DNA from: Anaerolineae bacterium
GTDB taxonomy: Bacteria; Chloroflexota; Anaerolineae; B4-G1; SLSP01
Reading direction: 5' to 3'
NCBI GenBank assembly: GCA_034429475.1
Contig: DAOUGD010000159.1
Span: forward strand, 1,604-65,603
DNA: 64,000 bases
The notes under the pieces were generated by a model. The model was not told the origin of the DNA. It saw nothing but the letters and a program-made list of their open reading frames with translations, and searched no databases. Position numbers and translations under genes: made by a program. The first letter of the stretch is position 1, and every line of letters begins with the position of its first letter. This document shows, piece after piece, positions 11,212 to 18,653 of this stretch.

Positions 11212-14031
11212 CTCCAGCGCCGGCGCGCCGTTGGCGCTGAGGATTTCTCCCGTTTCCTGACGATACCACCCCACCCGCAGGATATAAGGCCCTGCCGGCA
11301 AGGCGTCCGGCAAGGTCAGCGTGTGGTCATCTGCGACAATTTCCCCCGCCAGCCACAACGAGGTGGGATAGGTGGCGCGGCGCGGCGCTTCGTCCACCTG
11401 CGCGATGAGCGTTTCCCCGGTTTCGGTCAGCAAGTGGATGAACACCACGTAATCCGCGCGCACCTCGGCCTGCGTCTGCCAGTACAACGTCACCCCGAAA
11501 GCCTGCCCGGCCTGCGGCGCGGCGGCGTCGTAGCCGAGCAGGCGCAGATGTCCCCCACCCTCAGCTTCCACAAACTCCGCCTGGAAAGGATGTTGCACGG
11601 CCGGCAAAGCGAAATTCCGCGCAAGCGCCTGGACTTCCACGACGCCGAGGGCGACCGGCGGCGCAGCATCCAGCGCAAGCGCCGCCGTATACGCGCCCGG
11701 CGCGAGCGTCTTGGGCAGGCGCAACAGATAACGGCCCTCCACCACCTCGCCGACGCGCCAGGCGGCGAGCGGGAAGTCGGGCGACGGCGGCCCGCTGTAG
11801 AGCGTGTGCGTCTCCGGGCCGGTCAACGTCAAAGACAGGGAAGTGGCGGAGGGAACGTCCGCCGCCTGCCAGCACGCTTTCACCAGAAGGCGCGCGCCCG
11901 GCAGAGCGGTTTCCACCGGCGGCGTCCACCCCAGGAGACGGACGTCCCCCTGCGTCACCGGATCACGACGGGGTATGTCGGGGCAAGCGGCCGCCGCTTC
12001 TTCCGGCGTGGGGACGCGGGTCGCCGGGGCAACCGCCAGGCCGGTTGCGGGCAGGAGCGCCTCCAGCCCGGCGAAGCGTTCATCTTTCAGGCGGGGCAGC
12101 GCTGTCCCGGCGTCGGGATTGTAGAAACCCACGCTCAACTGATAGCCGTCGCCCGGCGGCGTCCCGACAGGGGGCGTGAGCGTCAGTTGATCCAACACCA
12201 CGTCGCCCGGCGTCCACTGCTCCGGCGGATAGTGGAAGGCCATCGTCCGCGCCCACTCGCCGGTCTGCGGGTGGGTCAGACGCACCACCGGCTCCAATGC
12301 CGGATAGGGCGCGCACGCCTCCCACGTGAGCAGCACCGGACACGGTTCGGCAACGCGACACTCTGCGGCGGGGCGGGCGTCGTGAAGCAGCACGACGTGG
12401 GCGAAGTCCGCCGCCGCGCCGTCCGCCGCCGGGCGCAGCGCGGCGATGGCGGCAGCGTCCAGTCGGTAAGCGGTGAGCGCGGGCGTCCCGTCCGGGCCGG
12501 GATAGTCGCGGCGCGTCCAGGCGCGGGCGACGGCGTCCGGCCAGGCGGCGGGCGCGGGCAGAGAGCGCGGGATGAGATAGAGCGCGTCGCCCTGGGGCGG
12601 CAGCACCAGCGACGCGCCGCCGGTGAGCCATTTGGCCGCGCTATACTGGCGGGCCAGCGCGGCGACGGTAGGATGGCGGTAGTGTTGGCTGGCGATGTAG
12701 ACGGTGGTGTCGCGTAGATCGGTCGCGTCAAGGACTTGCGCGGTCAACGTCATGTCGCCATCCGTCGTGGCGAACAATGCGGGAGATGCGGCCCACGTCC
12801 GGTAACTTTGCCCGGCCCACAGTCCGCCGCCGCCGAGCAGCAACAGGGCGCAGCCCACGCGCGCGGCAGGCCGGAGGCGCAGCGTCTCCCAAAGCACAAC
12901 CAGCCCCCAGGCCGGAAGGATCGCCAGAAAGGGCCACAGCCCCACCAGCCGCAGATTGCTCGGCGTGATTTCGCCGGTGGCGAGCGCGCTGGGCAGCAGC
13001 ATCACCAAGAGCGCGCCCAACAAAAAGTGGCGGGAGGAATGTCTCAACGGATGGAACGGAGGGGAACGGAAGGGGAATCCGTTAAAATCCGTTAAATCCG
13101 TTGAGAAAAGCCATGCCCCCAATCCAATGATCGCCAGGAGCGCGGAAAGGGGATCCCATAGCGGGCGTCCAGGGATGTTGAAACGCACGTAAGCGTCGCC
13201 GGCGCCGGGCCAGACGAGAGCGCGGGCGCACTGCCAGAAACCGCGCGCGGCATCCTGCCAGGAGGCGGCGGCCACTTGCGTGATGCGGGTGCTGAACGCT
13301 TCGGGGTGGCGCAGGAAGTGCCATCCCAGCGGGGCAAAGACGACGAGGGCGACGGCGAGCGCGAGGAGCAATCGCCAAAATCGCTTCCGGCGTTCTTCCG
13401 GCGAGACGCCAAGGAGCGTCGCGGCCAGCGCCAATCCCAGGGGGATGGGGAACAGCCGCGCCGCCAGGTACGTGTAGCCGGTCAGCCCCAGGCAGAGGCC
13501 GCCGGCCGCAAACCAGCGCGTTTTGCCGGTGCGCAGTCCGAACCAGAGGGCGGCAACGGTGAGGGCTTGCAGCAACGGCTGCGAGATGGCGCGGAATCCG
13601 TAGCGGCTGAGGAGCAGGTGCGGAAAAGCGACCGCGACGCCGCCCGCCGCGAGGAGCGCGATCTGCCGGGCGCGGCGGCCAGGGCCGAGCAGGGCGCGGG
13701 TCGCCGGGTAGGTCGCGGCGACGGTCAGCACACCCAACAGCGCAGACGCCAGCCGCATTCCCCATACGGCCTGCCCGGTGATCCAGACCCAGAAGGCGGC
13801 GACGTAAAAAAAGAGGACTTCCTTGCCGGTGTAGGCGTGGATGAAAATGGGCCGGTAGCCGCCAGAGACGATCTGACGGATGAGAATGGTGTTGGCGGCC
13901 TCGTCATAGTGCAAGCCCAAGGGAAGGTGGGGCAAATCCCACAGGCGCAGCACAGTTGCAAGCAAGATAATGAGGAGAATGCCCCACCGGTGATTCTGGA
14001 TTTTGGATTTTGGATTTTGGATTTTGGACAA
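11197..14031 (-). CDS. GT-C (ArnT/PMT_2, GT39-like) membrane glycosyltransferase with repeated C-terminal Ig-like domains
   Basis: GLHYDEAAN motif, about 12 TMs, repeated LLGY..VTLYW..Y.VFIHL..YPTSLW..GEIV.D modules. Start uncertain (TTG 14031 used). Confidence 0.8.
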   Translation of the reverse strand: MSKIQNPKSKIQNHRWGILLIILLATVLRLWDLPHLPLGLHYDEAANTILIRQIVSGGYRPIFIHAYTGKEVLFFYVAAFWVWITGQAVWGMRLASALLGVLTVAATYPATRALLGPGRRARQIALLAAGGVAVAFPHLLLSRYGFRAISQPLLQALTVAALWFGLRTGKTRWFAAGGLCLGLTGYTYLAARLFPIPLGLALAATLLGVSPEERRKRFWRLLLALAVALVVFAPLGWHFLRHPEAFSTRITQVAAASWQDAARGFWQCARALVWPGAGDAYVRFNIPGRPLWDPLSALLAIIGLGAWLFSTDLTDFNGFPFRSPPFHPLRHSSRHFLLGALLVMLLPSALATGEITPSNLRLVGLWPFLAILPAWGLVVLWETLRLRPAARVGCALLLLGGGGLWAGQSYRTWAASPALFATTDGDMTLTAQVLDATDLRDTTVYIASQHYRHPTVAALARQYSAAKWLTGGASLVLPPQGDALYLIPRSLPAPAAWPDAVARAWTRRDYPGPDGTPALTAYRLDAAAIAALRPAADGAAADFAHVVLLHDARPAAECRVAEPCPVLLTWEACAPYPALEPVVRLTHPQTGEWARTMAFHYPPEQWTPGDVVLDQLTLTPPVGTPPGDGYQLSVGFYNPDAGTALPRLKDERFAGLEALLPATGLAVAPATRVPTPEEAAAACPDIPRRDPVTQGDVRLLGWTPPVETALPGARLLVKACWQAADVPSATSLSLTLTGPETHTLYSGPPSPDFPLAAWRVGEVVEGRYLLRLPKTLAPGAYTAALALDAAPPVALGVVEVQALARNFALPAVQHPFQAEFVEAEGGGHLRLLGYDAAAPQAGQAFGVTLYWQTQAEVRADYVVFIHLLTETGETLIAQVDEAPRRATYPTSLWLAGEIVADDHTLTLPDALPAGPYILRVGWYRQETGEILSANGAPALELSVP
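13042..13106. repeat. AACGGA-type palindrome inside the GT-C coding sequence
   Basis: TCTCAACGGATGGAACGGAGGGGAACGGAAGGGGAATCCGTTAAAATCCGTTAAATCCGTTGAGA. Confidence 0.85.
13993..14027. repeat. Heptamer tandem repeat (ATTTTGG)x4 plus one imperfect unit
   Basis: Read directly; encodes SKIQNPKSKIQN on the minus strand. Confidence 0.9.
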
Positions 14032-14936: not shown

Positions 14937-15749
14937 ATGATTGCTTACCTCAAGGAATTGTGGGCCTATCGTGAGTTGGTCTATAATCTGGTGCTGCGCG
15001 ATCTCAAGGTGCGGTATAAAAATTCGGTGCTGGGCGTCGTGTGGTCATGGTTGAATCCCTTGCTGATGATGTTGGTGTTCACGCTGGTGTTCGATGTGTT
15101 GGGGCTGGCGCGGCAGGACATCTCCAATTATCACATCTTCTTCTTGAGCGCGCTGCTGCCCTGGAACTTCTTCTCCGGCTCGGTGATGGGGGGGATTCCA
15201 TGCATCGTCAGCAATGGACACTTGATCAAGAAAGTGTATTTCCCCCGCGAGGTGCTGCCAATTTCGGTGGTGCTGTCGAATATGGTGAACTTTGTGGTGG
15301 CGCTGCCGGTTTTCTTCCTGCTGGCGCTAATTTTCGGCCAGCGGATCACGCCGTGGGTGCTGCTCCTGCCCATCCCCATTTTGATTCAAGTCATTTTTGC
15401 GTGCGGGATCGTGTTGTTTCTTTCAACGTTGGAAGTGTTTTATCGGGATACGCACATGTTGATGGACCCGCTTATCCAGGCGTGGTTCTTCATCACGCCC
15501 ATCATTTATTCGTACAAAGACCTCCCCGACAAGGTGACGCTTTTGAACATCACCTTCAACCCGCAGACCTGGATTTTCCGCCTGAACCCGATGGCGTCCA
15601 TTATCAACACGTATCAGGATATTTTGTACCGCGGTGAACTGACCCGGTGGGATTTCCTGTCGCGCACGGGGGCGACGGCGCTGGTGGTGTTGCTGTTTGG
15701 CTACTGGTTTTTCCGGCGCTTCAGCGGCAAGTTTGGAGAGACGGTGTAA
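14937..15749 (+). CDS. ABC-2 type polysaccharide export permease (Wzm/TagG-like)
   Basis: RDLKVRYKNSVLGVVWSWLNPLL, IKKVYFPREVLP, YRD, LNPMASII motifs. Confidence 0.9.
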   Translation: MIAYLKELWAYRELVYNLVLRDLKVRYKNSVLGVVWSWLNPLLMMLVFTLVFDVLGLARQDISNYHIFFLSALLPWNFFSGSVMGGIPCIVSNGHLIKKVYFPREVLPISVVLSNMVNFVVALPVFFLLALIFGQRITPWVLLLPIPILIQVIFACGIVLFLSTLEVFYRDTHMLMDPLIQAWFFITPIIYSYKDLPDKVTLLNITFNPQTWIFRLNPMASIINTYQDILYRGELTRWDFLSRTGATALVVLLFGYWFFRRFSGKFGETV

Positions 15750-15764
15750 TTTATCCCCAACCGG

Positions 15765-15773
15765 TGTTATACT
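15765..15773 (+). promoter_or_regulatory. Extended -10 promoter for the MFS-micropeptide operon, leaderless
   Basis: TG-T-TATACT ending 15773; ATG at 15780; no SD. Confidence 0.55.
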
Positions 15774-15779
15774 GAAAGC

Positions 15780-16835
15780 ATGAATGGAAAGACCGTAGTC
15801 AGCAACCTGTCAGTCTATGGCCTCACCCACGCGCTGGTAGACGCGGCGTGTATCGCCACCCTTTTCGCCATCGTCGCGCGCGATCCTACTAACCCGCAGA
15901 GCGCTTTCCTGATCATCTTCTACAACGTGCTGGCCTTTGCCACGCAACCGCTCTTTGGTCTGTTGGCCGATCGCTTCAACGCGCCCGTCCACGCGGCGGT
16001 GTGGGGGACGCTGTTGGTCGCAGCGGCCACGTTGGTTCTCCCGCTCCCGCTGCTGGCGGTGGGGATAACGGGGATCGGCAATGCCTTGTTTCACGTCGGG
16101 GGCGGCGCCATCAGCCTGAAGCTGGCCGATGGCAAGGCGGCCCTGCCGGGGATTTACGTGGCGCCCGGCGCATTAGGGTTGGCGCTAGGGCTGTGGATCG
16201 GCAAAAGCGGGCACTTTGTCGCCTGGCCGTTCATCCTGCTGTTGCTGGCCGCCGCCGGGCTGATGGTGAAACTCCCCCGTCCGGCGCCCGCCGCGCCCCG
16301 CCCGTTGCCGGCCGATCTGCGCTGGTTCGAGGCGGTGCTCCTGTTGCTGCTCGTCTCCGTGGCGATTCGGGGCATGGTGGGCATGAGCCTCGTGCTGCCG
16401 TGGAAGTCGGAGCCGGTTTTGCTCGTTATCCTGACAGCGGCGGTCGTGTTGGGAAAAGCCCTGGGCGGTGTCCTGGGCGACCGGTTCGGGTGGACCAGAG
16501 TGGCTGTGGCGGGGCTAGTCCTCGCAACCCCTTTGCTCACGTTCTTCGCCCATACGCCGGCGCTCGCCATCCTGGGCGTCTTTTTGTTCAACCTGACCAT
16601 GCCGGTGACGCTCATCTGTGTTTCCGAGATGTTGCCGGGGTATAGCGGCTTTGCTTTCGGGTTGACGGCGTTGGCCCTGGTCATCGGCGCCTGGCCCGTC
16701 TTTACGCCGCTCCGCACTTTGACAGGCCATCCGGCAGCCATCTTCGCCGCCATTCTCATTTCCATAGTCGCTTTGTACGGGGGGCTGCGGTTGTACACCG
16801 ATCACTTTAGCGCGCCCGTCTCAGCGCATGGTTGA
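15780..16835 (+). CDS. Atypical MFS-like transporter
   Basis: About 11-12 hydrophobic segments; motif-A-like GLLADRF and GGVLGDRFG; polar motifs THALVD, YNVLAFATQP, GNALFHVGGG. Confidence 0.75.
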   Translation: MNGKTVVSNLSVYGLTHALVDAACIATLFAIVARDPTNPQSAFLIIFYNVLAFATQPLFGLLADRFNAPVHAAVWGTLLVAAATLVLPLPLLAVGITGIGNALFHVGGGAISLKLADGKAALPGIYVAPGALGLALGLWIGKSGHFVAWPFILLLLAAAGLMVKLPRPAPAAPRPLPADLRWFEAVLLLLLVSVAIRGMVGMSLVLPWKSEPVLLVILTAAVVLGKALGGVLGDRFGWTRVAVAGLVLATPLLTFFAHTPALAILGVFLFNLTMPVTLICVSEMLPGYSGFAFGLTALALVIGAWPVFTPLRTLTGHPAAIFAAILISIVALYGGLRLYTDHFSAPVSAHG

Positions 16836-16869: not shown

Positions 16870-17085
16870 ATGAAAACGGTTTTTCCGCAACTATCCATGG
16901 GCATTCTATCCTTTCTGACAGAAGCAATATGCGCTGACATCCCTCCACCAGACATATATTCCACGGAGGCAGTAGAAGCGACGACGAATTCTATGCTGGG
17001 ACTTGGTCTTGTTGTCATCATTATGGTTCTCGCCGCGTTTGTAGTGCTCAGGGCAATCAACAAGAAGAGACGTACTGAAAAATAG
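16870..17085 (+). CDS. Small membrane protein 1 (71 aa; leader-ADIPPP-TM-RAINKKRR)
   Basis: SD AAGGAG, ATG 16870; shares architecture with the next two ORFs. Confidence 0.7.
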   Translation: MKTVFPQLSMGILSFLTEAICADIPPPDIYSTEAVEATTNSMLGLGLVVIIMVLAAFVVLRAINKKRRTEK

Positions 17086-17101: not shown

Positions 17102-17314
17102 ATGAAACCAGGATTGTTGCTGCTATGGGGATTGGAGTTGCTGGCACGGCTGCCGCTGCAAGGTATATTTGCCGATGCTGCGCCGCCGATGGAGTTTTTC
17201 ATCGTGCTGGGGGTGGGGGCGCTGATTGTGCTCGGCTTCATTGTCGTTGTCATTGTCGGCATTTCGATTCTGGTGATCAGGGCAATCAAGAAGCGCAGAA
17301 CTGCGGAAGAGTAG
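17102..17314 (+). CDS. Small membrane protein 2 (70 aa; leader-ADAAPP-TM-RAIKKRR)
   Basis: Strong SD AGGAGG; paralog of its neighbours. Confidence 0.75.
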   Translation: MKPGLLLLWGLELLARLPLQGIFADAAPPMEFFIVLGVGALIVLGFIVVVIVGISILVIRAIKKRRTAEE

Positions 17315-17326
17315 CAGAAGGGTGCT

Positions 17327-17533
17327 GTGAAACCAGGATTCTTGCAACTATTGGGGCTGATTTTACTCTTGCGCCTGCCAGAGCAGGGCGTGTACCTTGA
17401 CCTTGTGCCCCCATGGCCGCTGTTCGGAATAGGACTGAGTATCGTGGTGGCGCTTGGTATCTTGATCGCCGTCATCGTTCTCCTCGCATATTTGGCATTG
17501 AGAGGAGTCAAGGATACGTACTCTCGAAAATGA
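17327..17533 (+). CDS. Small membrane protein 3 (68 aa; leader-LDLVPP-TM-RGVK..RK)
   Basis: GTG start with AGAAGGG SD; 5' DNA very similar to protein 2. Confidence 0.7.
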   Translation: MKPGFLQLLGLILLLRLPEQGVYLDLVPPWPLFGIGLSIVVALGILIAVIVLLAYLALRGVKDTYSRK

Positions 17534-17561: not shown

Positions 17562-17897
17562 ATGTTGGGCAAATACCTCCTCGCCCTGGACCTGACCCTG
17601 ATCATTGAAGGGGGCGTGGCCTATCTGCTCGGATTCCGCAGCCGCCGGGACGTGTTGACCGTTGCCCTGGTCAGCGTGATCACACACCCAATTCTGAACT
17701 ATGTCCTCCTGGTTCTCGGCTATCTGGGCCTGGAGGTGACTCCAGGGTTGGTCACACTCCTGGAAGTCCTGGTGGTCGTTGCGGAATGGCGCTTGCTGGC
17801 CTATGCTTCCGGCAAATCCCAAAGGCAATGCCTCGTCACATCCTTATTGGCAAATGCGGCGTCATTTCTCGTGGGTATCTTGCTCTTTTGGCTATGA
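17562..17897 (+). CDS. Uncharacterised 4-TM membrane protein (111 aa)
   Basis: Four hydrophobic helices carrying LTLIIE, ITHP, LEVLVVVAE and SLLANAASF. Confidence 0.75.
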   Translation: MLGKYLLALDLTLIIEGGVAYLLGFRSRRDVLTVALVSVITHPILNYVLLVLGYLGLEVTPGLVTLLEVLVVVAEWRLLAYASGKSQRQCLVTSLLANAASFLVGILLFWL

Positions 17898-17990: not shown

Positions 17991-18653
17991 CTACTGGAGG
18001 GCTTGCCACACGCACATCACGGCCAGGAAGAGCAGCGTCAGAATGAGAATGACCTTCACCCCACGGGCCACCACCCGCCGGATCGTGGTTATCTTCCCCT
18101 GATCGAAGAGGAGTGGCCGCCCGGTCAGCGCCGAAAGCAGACCGCCCAAAACACCCACCAGGCCAACAGCCAATGGCGTCGTCCAGATCTGACCGCTCAA
18201 ATACCATCCCATCCAGGTCGCCAAAAACGCTACCAGCCCCACCCCTATGCCGATCCAGCCCATCTGCCGGAAAAAGCGACGGCGCGCGGGATCGTCGGCA
18301 TCGCGCTCCAGCATTTCCCCTTGGCGCCGCCGCTGCGTGGCGAAACTTTCCCGGAAAGTCGCCGCGGCAGACACGGCCTCACGCCTTTCTTCCCCGAACA
18401 GCCAGGGCATGTCTGTGAAGTAGCGTAACACCGTCGTCGGAATCATCCAAACGATAAAGACCAGCAGATATGCCAACAGCGCGCCGAGAATCTGGCTCTC
18501 GCGCCGCCCAATCCACAGCAAGGCTTGTTGCAGCCAGTGATATGGCCCGCTGTCCAGGATCAGCCAGCGCAGCCAGATAGCGGTGATCACCCCCAACAAA
18601 ATGAAAAGGATGACCCGAAAAACCGGGGCGGAAATGTAACGTTTGCGTTTCAT
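17991..18653 (-). CDS. Hypothetical membrane protein
   Basis: SD AGGAG; about 5 TMs with a charged cytoplasmic loop. Confidence 0.7.
   Translation of the reverse strand: MKRKRYISAPVFRVILFILLGVITAIWLRWLILDSGPYHWLQQALLWIGRRESQILGALLAYLLVFIVWMIPTTVLRYFTDMPWLFGEERREAVSAAATFRESFATQRRRQGEMLERDADDPARRRFFRQMGWIGIGVGLVAFLATWMGWYLSGQIWTTPLAVGLVGVLGGLLSALTGRPLLFDQGKITTIRRVVARGVKVILILTLLFLAVMCVWQALQ

Follow-up and report, generated by a model that had tools for sequence, protein, structure and literature searches.

A small four-helix membrane protein encoded in the window, the whole 64,000-nucleotide stretch of Anaerolineae DNA that we analysed, is probably no protease of a known kind but the core of a membrane module that has not been described before. 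In the specific form that we favour, tentatively and at slightly less than an even chance, the protein would be the membrane core of a partner-plus-transporter module and would carry a putative intramembrane acidic site.

A four-helix membrane protein with invariant polar residues

The initial annotation had described the open reading frame as a tiny 111-aa protein with four membrane-spanning segments, and the sequences quoted for these segments are all present in the translation (LTLIIE, residues 11–16; SVITHP, 38–43; LLEVLVVVAEW, 66–76; SLLANAASF, 94–102). The reading frame at 17562..17897 is a real gene. A word-indexed homolog search gave 38 matches at E ≤ 0.01 among 98 candidates, nearly all of them 110–114 aa long, and the named close homologs from this search come from Anaerolineae or Chloroflexota MAGs, where they are annotated as 'hypothetical'. 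An exhaustive HMMER search of 1.84 billion cluster representatives retrieved 740 at E ≤ 1e-3, including 123 at E ≤ 1e-10, with lengths mostly between 106 and 121 aa. The family alignment used below comprises 105 sequences, namely the window's protein and 104 of the 150 representatives listed; most of the rows left out had fewer than 106 or more than 121 aa. An AlphaFold2 model based on this alignment consists of four helices (residues 2–22, 28–54, 61–83, and 87–110) and has a mean pLDDT of 95.2 and a pTM of 0.83. Lysine and arginine are concentrated in loops 1 and 3, which hold 2.4 and 2.7 such residues per sequence in the family, while the N-terminus, loop 2, and the C-terminus each hold 0.2–0.4. 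This bias predicts a fixed topology in which both termini lie outside.

Table 1 Features of the window around the four-helix gene
Feature	Position	Strand	Details
ABC-2 (Wzm-like) permease	14937..15749	+	PF01061, E 1e-14; 30 bases upstream of the MFS gene
MFS-type transporter	15780..16835	+	351 aa; PF07690, 36.6 bits (cut-off 33.4), residues 21-303
Micro-protein 1	16870..17085	+	71 aa from ATG 16870; longest ORF starts at 16828
Micro-protein 2	17102..17314	+	70 aa
Micro-protein 3	17327..17533	+	68 aa; GTG start
Four-helix membrane protein	17562..17897	+	111 aa
Convergent multi-pass membrane protein	17991-18653	-	220 aa; sub-threshold DUF6234, E 0.0067, 17.3 bits (cut-off 27.5)

Across the 105 diverse homologs (mean column identity 41%), E16, E68, E75, N98, and S101 are invariant, and T12, G24, N38, T41, P43, and G105 are conserved in at least 90% of the sequences. 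The 38 close homologs have E16, T41, E68, E75, N98, S101, G24, and G105 among their invariant positions, and in 28 natural fusion proteins with a mean column identity of only 22%, the corresponding E, N, E, E, and N never vary. S94 was also counted among the conserved polar positions. Multiple alignment, proposed in the initial annotation as the check on a membrane-embedded constellation of three Glu, one His, and one Asn, found Glu and Asn kept in all three sequence sets. Most of the constellation stands, as E16, E68, E75, and N98 are invariant in the 105 homologs, but its histidine does not: position 42, His in the window's protein, is Asn in 72 of the 105 sequences, His in 31, and Gln in one. 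At position 38, the window's protein has Ser where 98 of 105 relatives have Asn. Judged from these alignments, the conservation of polar residues in the family lies far above chance.

The conservation moment, which describes how strongly conserved positions gather on one helical face, was significant for TM1, TM3, and TM4, where the observed value was reached by 0.3%, 1.4%, and 0.1% of 2000 shuffles, respectively, and the invariant polar residues of these three helices all lie within 40 degrees of the conserved face. For TM2 the moment was not significant (20.8% of shuffles), with N38 at 14, T41 at 46, and position 42 at 54 degrees; N46 lies 94 degrees off the conserved face. Along the helices, E16 and S94 would be placed in the inner third of the membrane, N38, E75, N98, T12, T41, and S101 in the middle, and E68 and N46 in the outer third. 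Invariant buried carboxylates are usually a sign of catalysis or ion handling.

Micro-proteins and the partner motif

Three paralogous micro-protein genes lie directly upstream of the four-helix gene on the same strand (Table 1). Two of the three have good Shine-Dalgarno-like sequences, and AGGAGGAGG is the Shine-Dalgarno-like stretch before the ATG of micro-protein 2. Micro-protein 1, which is nearly identical in a locus of the same genus (L003), consists of a leader, the sequence A-D-I-P-P-P, about 20 exposed residues, one membrane helix, and the tail LRAINKKRR. Micro-protein 2 has a leader ending in IFA, followed by D-A-A-P-P-M-E-F, one membrane helix, and the tail VIRAIKKRR. Micro-protein 3, which was aligned with partners from other loci and whose gene has the same position as those of partners in other phyla, combines a hydrophobic leader, L-D-L-V-P-P, and one membrane helix with a short polar tail that has few basic residues. 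Two micro-proteins per four-helix gene were found in L040, L054, and L063, compared with the three of the window.

Partner proteins share this layout more widely. Right after the leader, they open with an [A/L]-[D/N]-x-x-P motif; when encoded separately, they have the motif after a leader or after only 3–10 residues, and one helix and a basic tail follow either directly or after an ectodomain. The D-A-A-P-P-M-E-F of micro-protein 2 matches the mature ectodomain start D-V-G-P-K-P-S-M-E-F of fused relatives from the same taxonomic order, and the micro-proteins therefore look like partners minus the ectodomain. We infer that all three micro-proteins of the window are ectodomain-less partners.

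The ectodomain of a fused relative was modelled as an eight-stranded sandwich (model pLDDT 81.1). Taken alone, it resembles transthyretin-like, fimbrial-adhesin-like, and CBM41 sandwiches at Z 6–8, which is a common fold. HGSNAT chains came out on top of the Foldseek search with the fused form (E about 1e-3) and were rejected as a chance likeness of one sandwich-and-helices protein to another, the TM-scores being 0.17–0.21 and the rmsd about 19 Å. In the fusions L020, L026, and P0171, the motif or ectodomain is joined straight to TM1 with no anchor helix between them. These direct joins agree with the N-out topology and argue against the partner's own helix as a required substrate. We base nothing on a predicted complex of the four-helix protein with mature micro-protein 2 (residues 24–70), which was run without controls and scored 0.00 and 0.09 against a mark of 0.32.

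The partner is adjacent or fused at most loci

We compiled 78 distinct loci from the window's genome and its relatives, from species-representative genomes identified by a pattern search, and from two further phyla; three are cut by a contig end, leaving 75 informative loci. The tally was curated by hand because an automatic motif rule mis-scored several loci, missing the motif in L004, L015, L018, L022, L023, L069, L070, L072, L079, and L081 and giving false motifs in L003, L011, L025, L027, and L076. In this tally, in which related genomes are not independent so that the counts overstate the number of independent observations, 27 of the 75 loci encode a leader, A-[D/N]-x-x-P, an ectodomain of 100–170 aa, and the four-helix domain as one protein, 30 have a separate upstream partner gene with the motif, four have an MFS gene alone upstream, 12 have nothing recognisable nearby, and two are ambiguous. 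The functional tie to the adjacent micro-proteins that the initial annotation had proposed is thus real, since a partner of the same kind is adjacent or fused in 57 of the 75 informative loci, in several phyla. Further out, the gene content showed no conservation in the 12 long loci and 25 fused loci compared, and the fused genes sit among unrelated housekeeping genes.

The 12 loci without a partner belong mainly to one Patescibacteria-type and one actinobacterial-type subfamily. Two divergent subfamilies, one of Patescibacteria type (L074, L075, L077, L078, L082) and one comprising L027, L028, and L032, have neither a partner nor an MFS gene nearby. In both, the three Glu, the Asn of TM4, and the Ser are retained, and the Patescibacteria-type subfamily has A-S-x-A-T-x-P-Y in place of the TM2 sequence N-x-x-T-N-P.

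The distribution of the four-helix family is patchy. It was found in 9 of 41 close relatives and in 10 of 401 genomes of the window's phylum, in 43 of 349 genomes from the phylum of an Erysipelotrichaceae MAG, and in 17 of 351 from the phylum of a Minisyncoccia MAG. Matches occur in records labelled Chloroflexota, Actinomycetota, Coriobacteriia, Clostridium, Erysipelotrichaceae, Minisyncoccia, Woesebacteria, and Nanoarchaeia, and in one Rickettsiales MAG.

The window's genome holds a second, fused paralog (L033; G000 contig C60, matched at bases 15662-15814) in a 397-aa ORF whose product combines a leader and A-N-A-A-P-P-P with a Cys-rich ectodomain and a domain of the four-helix type; extra membrane helices lie between its TM1-like helix and TM3–TM4, and only TM3–TM4 scores well (E 1e-5). 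In a small Patescibacteria-type genome (L070 / L084; G1081 contig C1, about 2350-2690), the four-helix gene is in pieces, with ORFs of 35 and 62 aa and a low-scoring, out-of-frame N-terminal match (E 2.3e-5) that runs through six stops, and the upstream partner is intact; the broken gene may be a pseudogene or an assembly error. L051 encodes, on its reverse strand (1094-1501 of the reverse complement), a very divergent four-helix-like protein of 135 aa that matches the family profile at E 1.5e-4 and lies between a micro-protein and a regular four-helix gene, downstream of an MFS gene.

A dedicated MFS transporter and other neighbouring genes

The gene upstream of the three micro-protein genes encodes an MFS-type transporter. 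Invariant residues in the alignment of its subfamily include H17, D21, D64, N101, H105, R197, and K226, and a GLLADRF-type motif, which we take to be MFS motif A, recurs in both halves. No PDB sequence was matched by this gene. It is single-copy in the window's genome, and its subfamily was seen almost only beside the four-helix family. Of the 48 unfused informative loci, 20 have an MFS-like gene next to them, which in 19 cases lies upstream and on the strand of the four-helix gene and in one case is divergent; the 27 fused loci have none. P0188 (436 aa), which carries a precomputed PF07690 annotation, joins MFS and four-helix domain in one protein. In a sample of one phylum, the MFS subfamily is present in 10 of 351 genomes, and nine of these 10 are also among the 43 of 349 with a four-helix gene; in eight genomes of that sample, the two genes are neighbours on one strand. 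None of five genomes that hold the fused form has the MFS subfamily, so that the core function does not depend on the transporter. Taken together, the locus and genome counts identify the four-helix protein and its partner as the constant element and the MFS transporter as an add-on of the window's architectural type.

Further upstream in the window, the ABC-2 permease gene, which has no ATPase gene beside it, may be co-transcribed with the MFS gene. It is not conserved upstream in the other loci examined, and its membership of the module is doubtful. ABC-type genes also adjoin family members at L020, with an ATPase and an ABC-2 permease downstream and a BlaI/BlaR1-like pair upstream, and at L019, where a divergent ABC-type ATPase is found. 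The convergent multi-pass protein also adjoins the cassette in the same-genus locus L003 and not elsewhere.

DegV (fatty-acid-binding) genes lie within a few kb of a family member at L010:233-1081, L011:3032-3898, L048:2213-3061, and L055:1979-2827; two of these loci are from Chloroflexota and two from another phylum, and the members of each pair may come from related genomes. PAP2, PEMT/ICMT, and DUF1295 genes adjoin family members at L067, L016, and L045. These neighbours are a weak hint of a lipid connection and may be there by chance. Between positions 14000 and 19000 of the window, no RNA family of Rfam was found at E ≤ 0.1. Nothing stood out in a promoter and terminator scan, which found five where 2.3 were expected from shuffles.

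Comparison with known families and systems

The four-helix protein has no match at E ≤ 1 in Pfam or NCBIfam. Among its 105 relatives, no Pfam family is common to more than two and no NCBIfam family to more than four, and all such matches are weak. PADLOC (a defence library) and PHROGs returned nothing for the four-helix protein, the protein atlas only unnamed clusters, and the PDB sequences a single chance match of the family profile (E 0.26). For one fused form, 22 relatives are annotated as nothing more than 'hypothetical protein', and none of them has a Pfam domain. Full-text literature searches returned no description of a four-helix, partner, and MFS system.

The structural similarity search that had been suggested in the initial annotation gave no fold match above helical-bundle noise. 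Foldseek against the PDB with the four-helix model found nothing at E ≤ 0.001, and VIA-align against all representatives gave as its best match, at Z 9.3, the N-terminal bundle of WbaP (PDB 8t53_A), the next matches being coat proteins of archaeal viruses and further unrelated bundles. This best Z is below the noise that the tool states for helical bundles, about 13. The WbaP bundle, which belongs to a phosphoglycosyl transferase, is likewise a four-helix membrane bundle attached to a larger machine and aligns over 105 residues with an rmsd of 2.9 Å (a fused relative reached Z 8.1 against WbaP); however, sequence identity is 11%, and a common fold shared at a Z below noise is no sign of shared function. 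As far as these searches reach, the family has no detectable relative or described system, and the function offered for it below is putative.

The initial annotation had pointed to the intramembrane glutamic proteases CPBP/Rce1 and PrsW, and kinship with either found no support. According to the part of the source available to us, the CPBP domain consists of four helices, TM4–TM7, and its catalytic motifs are an adjacent Glu-Glu pair (EExxxR), a His on the next helix, and HxxxN (PMC11980579). The four-helix protein is similar in burying Glu and Asn in its membrane helices and in matching the four-helix CPBP catalytic domain in helix number (PMC11980579, as far as available), but it consists of these four helices only. 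Its family has no adjacent Glu-Glu, the Glu residues being at 16, 68, and 75, no invariant His, and no HxxxN, the residue four before N98 being Ser94. PF02517 is not among the families listed for the 105 relatives. In the window's genome, the PF02517 model has 19 matches, none of them at the four-helix gene; eight CPBP domains of this genome, when aligned, show the invariant EE..R, H, and H. Alignment of the 105-sequence family profile to these eight domains with hhalign, in which the CPBP profile is shallow, gave a probability of 0.13% over nine aligned columns. No Rce1 or CPBP chain is among the Foldseek or VIA-align matches listed. Based on these sequence comparisons, the four-helix protein is not a CPBP/Rce1-type protease. 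For PrsW, neither Pfam nor NCBIfam gave a match of the four-helix protein, and no PrsW family is among the weak matches listed for the 105 relatives.

SMR (EmrE-like) transporters are also about 110 aa long and have four membrane helices, an essential TM1 glutamate, and dual topology. The four-helix protein shares their size, helix number, and TM1 glutamate. Unlike them, it has no Pfam match, a predicted fixed N-out/C-out topology, four further invariant polar residues on TM3 and TM4, and an outward-facing partner.

Some CPBP-type sorting enzymes are encoded beside their own client, as is MrtJ with JDVT-CTERM proteins, and some such clients, of the myxosortase type, are single, small proteins with a membrane helix and a basic tail (10.1101/2023.06.07.544157, in the part available). 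In the tripartite sorting signal described in the same part of that source, a signature motif, a membrane helix, and a basic cluster stand at the C-terminus of otherwise unrelated clients (10.1101/2023.06.07.544157). The partners differ from these clients in that their conserved motif is N-terminal rather than placed before a C-terminal helix and in that they are often fused. A C-terminal sorting signal of the sortase, exosortase, or myxosortase type was rejected for the ectodomain-bearing partners, whose motif is far from the C-terminal helix: in L004, L022, L030, L031, L072, and L079, 100–200 residues separate the two, and nothing is conserved before the helix. In the window's micro-proteins, the motif does precede the membrane helix. 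NCBIfam sorting domains gave no match.

A transporter paired with a small protein is known from lysosomes, where, as far as the available part of the source describes it, the MFS transporter MFSD1 is paired with GLMP, a small membrane-anchored protein with an extracytoplasmic domain. The present set differs from that pair in having as its constant element a third, four-helix component, which mostly occurs without an MFS protein, and no homology links it to GLMP or to a known accessory subunit of any kind.

Weighing of the possible functions

In the reading that we favour, the four-helix bundle and its partner would form a stable complex. The stacked Glu, Asn, Ser, and Thr residues, to judge from helical periodicity, would run from the inner leaflet to the outer along the bundle core or an interface, as a putative site at which a cation, a proton, or a polar substrate is bound or reacts. 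Where present, the MFS transporter might deliver or remove that substrate, the word 'substrate' being a guess. Support comes from the 740 representatives, from residues invariant in both the 105 diverse and the 28 fused members, from the confident model (pLDDT 95.2), from the fixed topology, and from the single conserved polar face on each of TM1, TM3, and TM4, together with the partner's being either fused (27/75) or separate with its motif (30/75) and the MFS gene adjoining 20 of 48 loci and being fused in P0188. Against it stand the 12 of 75 loci with no partner nearby and the lack of the MFS subfamily in all five fused-form genomes, and the several paralogous micro-proteins per four-helix gene would fit substrates or clients as well as subunits. 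That fusions exist, some of them without the partner's own helix, is easier to reconcile with a stable association of the two than with an enzyme that cleaves a membrane-helix substrate.

Such an enzyme, a minimal intramembrane hydrolase of a new kind, is an unlikely alternative. Two of the glutamates would activate water, Asn98 and Ser101 would stabilise the intermediate, and the micro-proteins would be dedicated substrates, processed for example by leader removal at the [A/L] | [D/N]-x-x-P junction. The invariant Glu, Glu, Glu, Asn, and Ser inside the membrane would suit this, as would the position of the motif exactly at the junction of leader and mature part in partners of all phyla sampled. 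Multiple paralogous small partners per four-helix gene recall sets of an enzyme and its clients, and adjacent pairs of this sort are known for MrtJ and JDVT-CTERM proteins (10.1101/2023.06.07.544157, in the part available). However, we found no likeness to known peptidases in sequence, profile, or fold, and the junction of most leader-bearing partners fits an ordinary signal-peptidase site, with V, I, or C at -3 and A at -1. Partners with 3–10 residues before the motif would leave little to remove, the motif of ectodomain-bearing partners is too far from their C-terminal helix for a tripartite sorting signal, and 'substrate' and 'enzyme' are covalently fused in 27 of 75 loci.

There is a small probability that the protein is instead, as an oligomer, a pathway for ions or protons or a small transporter, whose polar ladder conducts or binds a cation, with the partner and MFS protein modulating it or using the gradient. 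The spread of conserved polar residues from the inner to the outer third, on conserved faces except for N46, is in line with this, and size and the single TM1 glutamate recall SMR-type transporters with four membrane segments; yet neither SMR nor any channel family of Pfam is matched, the topology is fixed rather than dual, and the outward-facing, motif-bearing partner is left unexplained. That the protein merely anchors or scaffolds the assembly of a surface beta-sandwich protein, its polar residues only zipping the helices together, we regard as less probable still. The fused forms do resemble an ectodomain on a four-helix anchor, and the ectodomain is like common adhesin-like or transthyretin-like sandwiches, at a modest Z of 6–8. 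An anchor would have no need for three Glu that stay invariant across phyla at 22–41% overall identity, though, and it explains neither the window's partners, which have no ectodomain to display, nor the dedicated MFS transporter. A bacteriocin-like set, with the micro-proteins as membrane-active peptides, the four-helix protein as immunity protein, and the MFS protein as exporter, seems very improbable. It would account for the tandem array of small, hydrophobic paralogs next to a transporter and a small multi-pass protein, and the BlaI/BlaR1-like pair and ABC-2 transporter that flank the gene at L020 have also been counted in its favour, but 27 of 75 loci have peptide and 'immunity' protein in a single chain, the partners frequently have ectodomains of 100–200 aa and are membrane-anchored by a basic tail, and the fused genes lie among unrelated housekeeping genes, with no match in the defence library.

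Significance of the four-helix family

The family comprises hundreds of sequence clusters across Chloroflexota, Bacillota, Actinomycetota, Patescibacteria, and DPANN-type archaea, with its three Glu, one Asn, and one Ser invariant, and yet it is unnamed, is covered by no domain model, has no relative of solved structure, and is described in no paper that our literature searches found. Gene fusions single out three proteins, the four-helix core, the motif-bearing partner, and the MFS transporter, and make the function directly testable. There is a small chance that the family is a new class of intramembrane enzyme with a carboxylate site in a four-helix bundle of 110 residues, acting on the partner or on a polar or lipid substrate that the MFS transporter supplies. 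Such a class, unrelated to CPBP, rhomboid, site-2, and aspartyl intramembrane proteases, might cut or modify the partner at the [A/L]-[D/N]-x-x-P junction, and if the core is indeed an enzyme, it would be the smallest intramembrane enzyme known. The presence of the family in genome-reduced Patescibacteria and Nanoarchaeia suggests a basic role in the envelope or in uptake.
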